Of a stretch of DNA of 4,389 nucleotides, positions 3,106-4,314 are shown in pieces. Below the pieces are notes generated by a model. It saw nothing but the letters and a program-made list of their open reading frames with translations. It did not search any database and was not told the DNA's origin. The stretch lies in the IMG/VR virus record IMGVR_UViG_2713896905_000006, one strand, 5' to 3'. Position numbers and translations under genes: made by a program. This DNA is from a virus (Duplodnaviria > Heunggongvirae > Uroviricota > Caudoviricetes). Position 1 is the stretch's first letter, and every line of letters starts with the position of its first letter.

Positions 3106-3168
3106 AACCATTTGCGGTAATATTTTATCTCTAGCGGTGTTGACGAAAATACCTCCGGCGGTGATACT
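3106..3168 (+). promoter_or_regulatory. Left operator region OL3 (3106-3122), OL2 (3126-3142), OL1 (3150-3166) with promoter pL
   Basis: Three 17-bp sites aaccatttgcggtaata, tatctctagcggtgttg, tacctccggcggtgata, the same family as the OR sites. pL -35 ttgacg (3140-3145), 17-bp spacer, -10 gatact (3163-3168). Near-identical to lambda oL/pL as recalled. Directs + strand transcription into nutL and N. Confidence 0.85.
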
Positions 3169-3214
3169 AAACACATCAGCAGGACGCTGGAAGCTAAATG
3201 GAACAGACTGGCAG

Positions 3215-3259
3215 GCTCTTTAAACAACGTCGACTCTCGACTACGTGGCTGAAAAGCCA
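3215..3259 (+). promoter_or_regulatory. nutL-like N-utilisation site (boxA, spacer hairpin, boxB)
   Basis: GCTCTTTAA (3215-3223, boxA-like), hairpin gtcga-ctc-tcgac (3229-3241), tacg, then tggct-gaaa-agcca hairpin (3246-3259, boxB-like). Lies in the pL leader upstream of N. Parallel architecture to the nutR copy. Confidence 0.55.
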
Positions 3260-3357
3260 GATCACCCAACCACATAAGCTGTGGGATGCAATGCCGAAGC
3301 AACCGTCTCAGGAGGAGCTTCGAGATTGCATCGCCAAAGTTTATTCGGGAGGAATCT

Positions 3358-3630
3358 ATGTCCAGAAAAACAGAATTTAAAGGCACCGCAGCTTCTCGCC
3401 GTAGAGCTCGTCGCGCAAATCTGCAAAGTCAGGAGGCGATTAGCTCCGACAAGCTACACAGGCCAACCCCTTCACGAGTGGTCTTGCAATGCAAGCGCAA
3501 ACCAGCAATGAGAGCAGAAGTTATAACTCTGACAACGTTGACCAGAAAATATGAAGGTTCAACTTGTCTTCCGAACGTAGCTCTTTACGCGGCAGGCTAC
3601 CGGAAATCAAAACAACTGACAGCGAGGTAA
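3358..3630 (+). CDS. N: N-family transcription antiterminator (arginine-rich motif; phage 21 N / P22 gp24-like)
   Basis: 90-aa product MSRKTEFKGTAASRRRARRANLQ...ALYAAGYRKSKQLTAR. Strong ribosome-binding site gggagga 5-8 nt upstream of ATG 3358. Arginine-rich N-terminus typical of N proteins. The N-terminus resembles phage 21 N and the C-terminus resembles P22 gp24, both from memory. First gene after pL/nutL, as expected. The upstream in-frame ATG at 3286 has no ribosome-binding site and is rejected as the start. Confidence 0.8.
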   Translation: MSRKTEFKGTAASRRRARRANLQSQEAISSDKLHRPTPSRVVLQCKRKPAMRAEVITLTTLTRKYEGSTCLPNVALYAAGYRKSKQLTAR

Positions 3631-3688: not shown

Positions 3689-4138
3689 ATGGAAGAACAG
3701 GCAAATAAGATTCTCATAGAACTATTGCAAAAAGCCAGTAATGGAATAGACGCGGCTGTCTCATTTAGCCAGGCACAGATTCCTGATGTTGTTCATCAGT
3801 TACTGCTATGGAATATGGTTGACAGTCTGATTAAAACATTAATAGCCATTTTAACAATCCCGCTGGTTTTCTGGTTTATGAAGAAACAGTGCCAAAAAGT
3901 TGAAATTGGTAAGTTCGATGATGAAGGATGGTCATGGGATAAGGGGAAGACTAAATACAAACCGACTATGATTTGGGAAAGTAACTGTGAGATTAGTTTT
4001 CTAATCTTACCATTAGCTGCAGTTTTTGTTCTGTGGGTAAGTTTTATTATTGCTGTAGTAACCAATATGACTTGGTTAAAAATTTGGCTGGCCCCAAAGC
4101 TTTACCTTATCGAATATGCAGCATCATTGGTTAAGTAA
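3689..4138 (+). CDS. Hypothetical small membrane protein with two predicted transmembrane helices
   Basis: 149-aa ORF with ribosome-binding site gaggtga (3679-3685) before ATG 3689. Two hydrophobic segments, LIKTLIAILTIPLVFWFM and ISFLILPLAAVFVLWVSFIIAVV. Sits in the early-left operon directly downstream of N, where lambdoid phages carry accessory and exclusion genes. Not recognised by me as a named protein. Confidence 0.65.
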   Translation: MEEQANKILIELLQKASNGIDAAVSFSQAQIPDVVHQLLLWNMVDSLIKTLIAILTIPLVFWFMKKQCQKVEIGKFDDEGWSWDKGKTKYKPTMIWESNCEISFLILPLAAVFVLWVSFIIAVVTNMTWLKIWLAPKLYLIEYAASLVK

Positions 4139-4142
4139 TTTT

Positions 4143-4168
4143 AGGCCGCATAGTCGGCCTTTATTTTT
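4143..4168 (+). terminator. Rho-independent terminator-like hairpin after the membrane protein gene
   Basis: Stem aggccg (4143-4148) / cggcct (4155-4160), loop catagt, followed by ttattttt (4161-4168). Begins 5 nt after the stop codon. Would be read through under N antitermination. Confidence 0.55.
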
Positions 4169-4287
4169 GGCATAAACAACAGAATAAACACTGCACTGTG
4201 CATTCATTCCAACGAGTGAATACACGGAGAAATGTCGCTCATAATTAAACAGGAGCCGACTTGTTCTGATTATTGGAAATCTTCTTT

Positions 4288-4314
4288 GCCCTCCGATGTG
4301 AGGGCAATTTTTTA
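4288..4314 (+). terminator. Second terminator-like hairpin upstream of the next ORF
   Basis: Stem gccctc (4288-4293) / gagggc (4300-4305), loop cgatgt, followed by aatttttta (4306-4314). Confidence 0.4.

Follow-up and report, generated by a model that had tools for sequence, protein, structure and literature searches.

The closest described relatives of the sites analysed here are the nut sites of phages H-19B and 933W. Read as RNA, H-19B nutR (GenBank AF034975) is CGCUAUUUU-CACAAU-(GGAC AUUC GUCC)-UACG-(UCGCU GACAA AGCGA), with parentheses around the hairpins, and nutL in the same record is ACAAC-(GAUUCG AAUA UGAAUC)-UACG-(GCGCU GACAA AGCGC); the 933W sites are the same. In both phages the nutR spacer hairpin is GGACAUUCGUCC and its boxB UCGCUGACAAAGCGA, and nutL has the hairpin GAUUCGAAUAUGAAUC and the boxB GCGCUGACAAAGCGC. 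The dyad symmetry of the H-19B spacer has reportedly been analysed: a change in one arm is said to inactivate NUT and compensatory changes to restore it, deletion of the dyad from NUT reportedly has little effect in reporters, and NusB, S10 and boxA are said to be dispensable for this phage. A reduced host-factor requirement is given in the title of one study (Neely & Friedman 2000, Mol Microbiol 38:1074). With N and NusA/NusG, H-19B nutR is protected from RNases H and T1 over spacer and boxB, Rho alone protects the spacer, and the H-19B N mutants R3H and S11F, altered in the N-terminal motif, are defective in nut binding (PMC3526286). The SKK domain of NusA contacts the nut spacer, according to a later paper from the same laboratory (PMC4499122).

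Lambda, P22 and phage 21 have nut spacers of 8-11 nt without a hairpin. The put RNA of HK022, about 65-70 nt long with larger stem-loops, works without any N protein.

H-19B had already shown the two-hairpin architecture with its compensatory logic; what is added here is a variant with a GAAA boxB loop. The sites described below read as a specificity variant within the H-19B class, combining a GAAA tetraloop, a lambda-like motif in N and an imm-lambda background. A full-text literature search with the nut sequences themselves gave no relevant match.

The immunity region and its two nut sites

The window, by which we mean the whole stretch of DNA that was analysed (4389 bases), is the immunity region of an E. 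coli lambdoid prophage. Its Cro matches lambda Cro at 66/66 residues (100%) and its cI repressor matches lambda cI at 224/237 (95%); these protein comparisons assign the prophage to the lambda immunity type, but its N is not lambda N. On the minus strand pR (561-533; TTGACT-17-GATAAT, inside the oR operators) is followed by cro (508-308), nutR (300-255) and the 5′ part of cII (1-169), an ORF that leaves the window at the left edge and is annotated as cII at this place in related records. On the plus strand the cI gene occupies 609-1322, and pL (3140-3168; TTGACG-17-GATACT, with oL; transcript start near 3175) is followed by nutL (3215-3259) and N (3358-3630; 90 aa; identified by Pfam PF25694 N_peptide, 3e-32, and by alignment). 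Both promoters agree with homologous annotation. From this gene order the elements at 3215-3259 (+) and 300-255 (-) are nutL and nutR of a lambda-immunity lambdoid prophage.

Other features of the region are noted here in passing. Two accessory genes (1409-1987 and 1984-2913, +) follow cI and precede a terminator-like hairpin (2927-2948). A DUF6932 protein (PF22014, 2e-26; PADLOC candidate defence family PDC-M63A, 2e-10) occupies the lambda rexAB slot; its gene overlaps that of a 309-aa protein whose sole known label is phrog_18731, and in close relatives an Nmad5-family gene stands beside DUF6932 in place of the phrog_18731 gene. The two have the look of a defence or exclusion pair that the prophage carries and expresses with cI. 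From nutL to the start codon of N, 3260-3356 (+) folds as a single long hairpin (-39.5 kcal/mol, z -4.4; none of 200 shuffles folds as well) whose base extends to the Shine-Dalgarno region of N; it stands where the leader of lambda N has the stem processed by RNase III. Downstream of N lies a gene for a predicted membrane protein of 149 aa (3689-4138, +; phrog_3054, a function-unknown family), and the two terminator-like hairpins after it (4143-4160 and 4286-4307) are candidate targets for N-mediated read-through.

In nutL, boxA GCUCUUUAA (as DNA GCTCTTTAA; 3215-3223, +) is followed by the single-stranded flank ACAAC (3224-3228), a spacer hairpin GUCGA-CUC-UCGAC of 5 bp with a 3-nt loop (3229-3241; from folding and family comparison), the linker UACG (3242-3245) and boxB, UGGCU-GAAA-AGCCA (3246-3259). 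In nutR, on the minus strand, boxA is CGCUCUUUG (as DNA CGCTCTTTG; 292-300), the flank UAACAAC (285-291, with CAAC conserved), the spacer hairpin GGAC-AUUC-GUCC of 4 bp with a 4-nt loop (273-284; identical in H-19B and 933W nutR), the linker UACG (269-272) and boxB UCGCU-GAAA-AGCGA (255-268). Both boxA copies, read directly from the DNA, are close to the consensus CGCUCUUUA and sit 5′ of boxB, and the order common to the two sites is boxA, CAAC, a short hairpin, UACG and a 5-bp boxB with a GAAA loop. The earlier note on this DNA had described such a two-hairpin layout with UACG flank and GAAA loop, and it is indeed present at its place on both strands. Its CAACG flank held as far as CAAC, which is conserved; the G had been counted twice and opens each spacer stem. 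The extra hairpin was seen correctly, and what went unrecognised was that it belongs to the documented H-19B/933W nut type.

The joint pattern of boxA, ACAACG, CTACG and GAAA-boxB has exactly two matches in the window, one per strand, and none of 200 dinucleotide-preserving shuffles contains any match. In silico, both hairpins form as the minimum-free-energy fold of the isolated elements, as the earlier note had proposed to check: the 45-nt nutL folds at -11.4 kcal/mol (z -2.6) and the 48-nt nutR at -11.7 kcal/mol (z -1.0, which is not unusual). As also claimed there, both stems differ between the sites without loss of pairing. In the spacer they are GUCGA/UCGAC and GGAC/GUCC, and the boxB stems UGGCU/AGCCA and UCGCU/AGCGA differ by one G-C to C-G flip. 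About 2% of shuffled spacers close into a terminal stem of 4 bp or more, so that two independent spacers would both do so by chance with a probability of roughly 4e-4.

The sites share with H-19B and 933W the order (boxA), CAAC or CAAU, a G-C-closed spacer hairpin, UACG and a 5-bp U-A-closed boxB. The nutR sites have the hairpin GGACAUUCGUCC and the boxB stem UCGCU/AGCGA in common, so that window nutR is H-19B nutR minus one boxB loop base. The differences from H-19B are the boxB loop (GAAA in the window, GACAA in H-19B), the arginine-rich motif of N (lambda-like RRRARRA against RRRERLKAKALA), the length of N (90 against 127 aa) and, in nutL, a canonical boxA and the lack of the upstream CACC..GGUG hairpin of H-19B nutL. 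The N proteins are homologous, with identical C-termini.

Likeness to lambda extends to the genomic positions of the sites, the boxA consensus, the 5-bp U-A-closed boxB stem, a GNRA-type loop and RRRxRRA in N, whereas lambda has an unstructured spacer of 8-9 nt where the window has a hairpin insert of 12-13 nt, and pentaloops (GAAAA/GAAGA) where the window has a true GAAA tetraloop. Aligned with lambda, nutR is identical through CGCTCTT of boxA and then continues with an H-19B-type spacer, about 15 nt longer and with the hairpin inside. Since lambda sequence reaches only through CGCTCTT, the alignment puts a mosaic junction with lambda inside boxA, which reads as nutR having been exchanged to match the non-lambda N about 3 kb away.

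Conservation of the spacer hairpin

Nut sites were collected from 80 IMG/VR loci that share at least 98% N identity with the window, from six phage genomes with more distant N, from a DNA pattern scan with an unconstrained spacer, and from the H-19B and mEp234 records. Sites were anchored on UACG with a paired boxB and on CAAY 8-22 nt upstream, the spacer itself being unconstrained; pairing statistics for UACG and boxB are therefore partly built in by the collection, and the spacer-stem statistics alone are free of this bias. Among loci retrieved without reference to nut sequence, UACG precedes 169/175 boxB-like hairpins, and the two-hairpin motif occurs in 109/109 distinct regions upstream of N-like ORFs.

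From first base to last, 31/31 distinct spacers close into a terminal stem of 4 bp or more, compared with 2% of composition-matched shuffles. The family has about ten different spacer stems (GGAC/GUCC, GUCGA/UCGAC, GAUUCA/UGAAUC, GGCC/GGCC, GGUGA/UCACC, GGACG/UGUCC, GAAGAU/AUCUUC, GGCA/UGCC, GGGC/GCCC and GGCG/CGCC) of 4-6 bp, with loops of 3-6 nt. For a covariation alignment of 34 distinct sites, the spacers were left- and right-justified on their flanks, so that structure was not fitted. The outer four spacer pairs are 100% paired in the 34 sequences, three of the four showing compensatory change with 3-4 pair types, whereas registers slid along the same alignment are only 26-44% paired. The covariation score is 0.614, compared with 0.131 ± 0.020 in shuffles (0/500 reach 0.614). 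G-U wobble pairs in the spacer stems occur in the sense strand only. The suggestion, made from two copies, that covariation here is a sign of selected RNA structure is borne out by these figures, and in the sequences compared the spacer hairpin behaves as an element selected for pairing only and not for sequence.

The boxB stems of relatives (CGGCU, AGGCU, UAGCU, CAGCU and GCGCU) are also all paired, although pairing was a collection criterion and their diversity alone is informative; in the collected sites the first boxB pair is U-A, C-G, A-U or G-C and the second C-G, G-C or A-U. A recognisable boxA is absent within 50 nt upstream in many family members; the window has one at both sites.

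Relatives without the hairpin, or with non-compensatory changes, would speak against selected structure. The complete IMG/VR was scanned with ACAAY-N(0-7)-TACG-boxB, a pattern too short to accommodate a hairpin. Its 94 matches held no genuine hairpin-less site of the H-19B class, the ACAAY of all genuine nut sites lying within a hairpin loop, and the outcome of this check favours a selected structure. One IMG/VR contig (L046; 1060-1130, -, and 3720-3780, +) has the window N and nutL but a lambda-type nutR without spacer hairpin. The junction is carried by no complete E. coli genome and the assembly may be chimeric, so this contig was not counted as a natural hairpin deletion.

In the nut sites compared from outside the H-19B class the hairpin is missing, in keeping with the view that it is not part of the canonical lambda-type site: lambda, P22 and phage 21 have none. 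P22 nutL and window nutL have boxA GCUCUUUAA in common, P22 and H-19B nutL share boxB GCGCUGACAAAGCGC, an E. albertii locus (L085) has the near-identical boxB CGCGCUGACAAAGCGCG, and the N C-terminus is shared as well. P22 nutL, with gp24, and the E. albertii site nevertheless differ in having no spacer hairpin and no CAAC/UACG flanks; their unstructured spacers are 11 nt and about 9 nt long, respectively. Since lambda, P22, phage 21 and the E. albertii P22-type pair all lack both hairpin and flanks, the hairpin is a trait of the H-19B-like clade. The leader of phage 21 (nutL, L210 190-232) is similar up to boxA, and its unstructured spacer AUCGACGGACUCUC resembles the window nutL hairpin GUCGA-CUC-UCGAC. 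The resemblance hints that an ancestor like phage 21 gave rise to the spacer hairpin, out of its spacer or a boxB arm.

N, the boxB loop and competing readings

The window N is 57-58% identical to the N proteins of H-19B and mEp234 over the aligned part, and it shares its Pfam family with H-19B N. The three share the start M-S/T-R-R/K-T-x-F-K-G and differ in the arginine-rich motif, and the last 21 residues are identical between window and H-19B N. The window motif is SRRRARRANLQ, of which SRRRARRA aligns with lambda TRRRERRA; Glu stands at the position aligned with lambda Trp18. Compared with PDB sequences by phmmer, N had no match even at E 10. A scan of genome contigs for N relatives returned four loci only, two of them contamination-like. 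Short contigs with near-identical window-type N or H-19B N were seen in a Segatella copri MAG (L083, L086) and in Xanthomonas pisi (L084), where they most likely represent E. coli phage contamination of those assemblies.

For 60 distinct N proteins encoded 3′ of a nutL, loop and motif were compared. A GAAA boxB pairs with the N motif G-S/T-x-A-x-RRR-(A/E)-RRA-x-LQ, near lambda TRRRERRAEKQ; the single GCAA nutL goes with RRRAHRAELQ; and GACAA goes with RRRERLKAKALA. N proteins at least 98% identical serve the stems GUCGA/UCGAC (nutL) and GGAC/GUCC (nutR) with varied loops (CUC, AUC, ACUC, ACAC, GCAC and AUUC under the same N, the nutL stem being fixed), and the hairpin GGAC-AUUC-GUCC is common to nutR sites with GAAA, GCAA and GACAA boxB loops. 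Among these proteins it is the boxB loop, not the spacer hairpin, that tracks the arginine-rich motif, and the distal hairpin has the make-up of an ordinary boxB for a lambda-like motif. The window nutR boxB (255-268, -) is one loop base apart from that of H-19B/933W (L002 5664-5678), GAAA against GACAA, which looks like a one-base specificity switch.

These results bear on the earlier suggestion that N recognises a bipartite or different-register element, with the spacer hairpin as a second N-binding determinant beside the GAAA hairpin. Aligning the nut sites of phages with the closest N, as had been proposed, gave the two-hairpin layout throughout and a boxB loop that follows the N motif. 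Three observations would fit a bipartite element: the hairpin stands next to boxB in all 109 regions upstream of N with no hairpin-less site, about 10 extra N-terminal residues precede the RRR core in these N proteins, and the nut-binding mutants R3H and S11F of H-19B N fall in this N-terminal segment. Set against them, stems and loops differ among phages with the same N, one hairpin serves three boxB specificities, the arginine-rich motif co-varies with the boxB loop rather than with the hairpin, and P22 N has a similar N-terminal extension yet no spacer hairpin in its site. With a hairpin that varies under the same N and a boxB loop that follows the N motif, the data do not support bipartite recognition of a sequence-specific kind, and we regard a second N determinant as quite improbable; any contact of N with the hairpin would be to its shape and not to its sequence. 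It is hardly credible that the hairpins are chance likenesses or DNA-level palindromes (an operator, a restriction-site palindrome or a minus-strand terminator), given that about ten unrelated stems stay paired at the same anchored position, that the wobble pairs are confined to the sense strand, and that both copies lie in transcribed orientation 3′ of pL and pR; GTCGAC is palindromic, and a terminator scan does list 3241-3229 on the minus strand, but this 'terminator' was rejected as the spacer palindrome read backwards, with a weak T run. A put-type RNA as in HK022 was likewise rejected: putL and putR resemble the window sites in that a pair of neighbouring stem-loops promotes antitermination in each of the early transcripts, leftward and rightward, but the window has a cognate N with an arginine-rich motif that co-varies with boxB, hairpins of 12-14 nt of which the distal one is a standard boxB, and no Rfam match (searched over its full length at E up to 10, it yielded terminator-like noise only and no nut or put family).

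Folding with longer flanks raises another candidate structure. The predicted minimum-free-energy and centroid structures of flanked nutL pair boxA with the boxB loop and 3′ arm (GGCU-C-UUUA with UGAAA-AGCC; 3214-3258, +), with the spacer hairpin at the tip, and in equilibrium folding the probability of boxB, P(boxB), is 0.03-0.17 for nutL with flanks and 0.58 for nutR in one context. If this were the functional structure, it could act as an RNA switch gating access of N or NusB. We judge this very improbable: natural nutL variants with U or A at 3214 lose the alternative fold and have P(boxB) of 0.85-0.98, the base 5′ of GCUCUUU shows no co-variation with the boxB stem, no such fold is predicted in lambda, P22 or g341c, and the flanked sites do not stand out by their folding z-scores. 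The pairing was rejected as a conserved feature, in view of the lack of co-variation, the many relatives without boxA and the single natural substitutions that abolish it; we take it to be lineage-specific and probably not selected. The hairpin might, alternatively, be a positive docking or geometry element for a host factor (NusA SKK, or competition with Rho at nutR/rut) that partly replaces boxA–NusB/S10. That it is never lost in nature (109/109 regions; no hairpin-less IMG/VR site), that many family members lack a recognisable boxA, and that the H-19B nutR spacer is protected by NusA with N and by Rho alone would all agree with such a role. The hairpin nevertheless varies freely in its interior sequence, in stem length (4-6 bp) and in its loop (3-6 nt), which is unusual for a specific protein site, and conservation is limited to the closing G-C pair and to CAAC and UACG on either side; the dyad deletion in H-19B reportedly had little effect in reporters, and the window itself has good boxA copies. 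We consider this element unlikely. Still tentative, and in our estimate unlikely, is that the hairpin is a positively required architectural element of this large N family, for example one that positions CAAC and UACG for NusA SKK and allows antitermination without boxA–NusB/S10. If true, this would explain why more than 100 distinct natural sites have all kept the hairpin despite the reportedly mild effect of deletion, and why many family members have no boxA.

A working scheme and its meaning

The reading that we prefer, and hold to be probable, is that the window carries a nut module of the H-19B/933W family in a lambda-immunity prophage, in which a spacer hairpin selected for its pairing folds away and N does not read the hairpin sequence. 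Upon transcription from pL or pR, the nut RNA would fold as boxA, CAAC, spacer hairpin, UACG and boxB. By homology, N with its lambda-like motif (RRRARRA against lambda RRRERRA) would bind boxB; if lambda and H-19B are a guide, NusA would bind the spacer and NusB/S10 could bind good boxA copies. The resulting N-Nus complex should then let RNA polymerase read through downstream terminators. In our interpretation the hairpin would fold away the 12-13 extra spacer nucleotides, leaving when closed a single-stranded spacer of about 10 nt in nutL and about 12 nt in nutR (compare 8-9 in lambda and 11 in P22), and it would set the flanking CAAC and UACG beside boxB and guard the extra nucleotides against mispairing.

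The hairpin arms were also subjected to in-silico mutagenesis. Random changes in the 5′ arm of H-19B nutR bring P(boxB) below 0.5 in 34% of cases; in window nutR, P(boxB) stays at about 0.8 when the arms are changed at random and rarely falls below 0.5. As a general picture, that an unpaired arm destroys boxB was not reproduced by in-silico arm disruption, compensation and deletion. The tolerance of dyad deletion reported for H-19B fits a folded-away insert but is hard to square with a hairpin that no natural site was found to lack, and this full retention hints at a positive role.

The two-hairpin nut site can now be placed: it combines the H-19B/933W architecture with a lambda-like N motif and a true GNRA (GAAA) boxB in a lambda-immunity prophage. 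Beyond what two copies could tell, the comparison indicates a spacer hairpin conserved purely as structure over about ten stem variants and apparently never lost, a specificity of N that is followed by the boxB loop and not by the hairpin, and a mosaic junction with lambda that lies inside boxA. The window N is 100% identical to that of the Stx phages 1717, 2851 and YYZ-2008 and of the O157:H7 Morioka V526 Stx1-converting phage. Because N is the same in several Shiga-toxin phages, these sites therefore mark the opening of the cascade of early genes through which such phages come to express their late genes and toxin.
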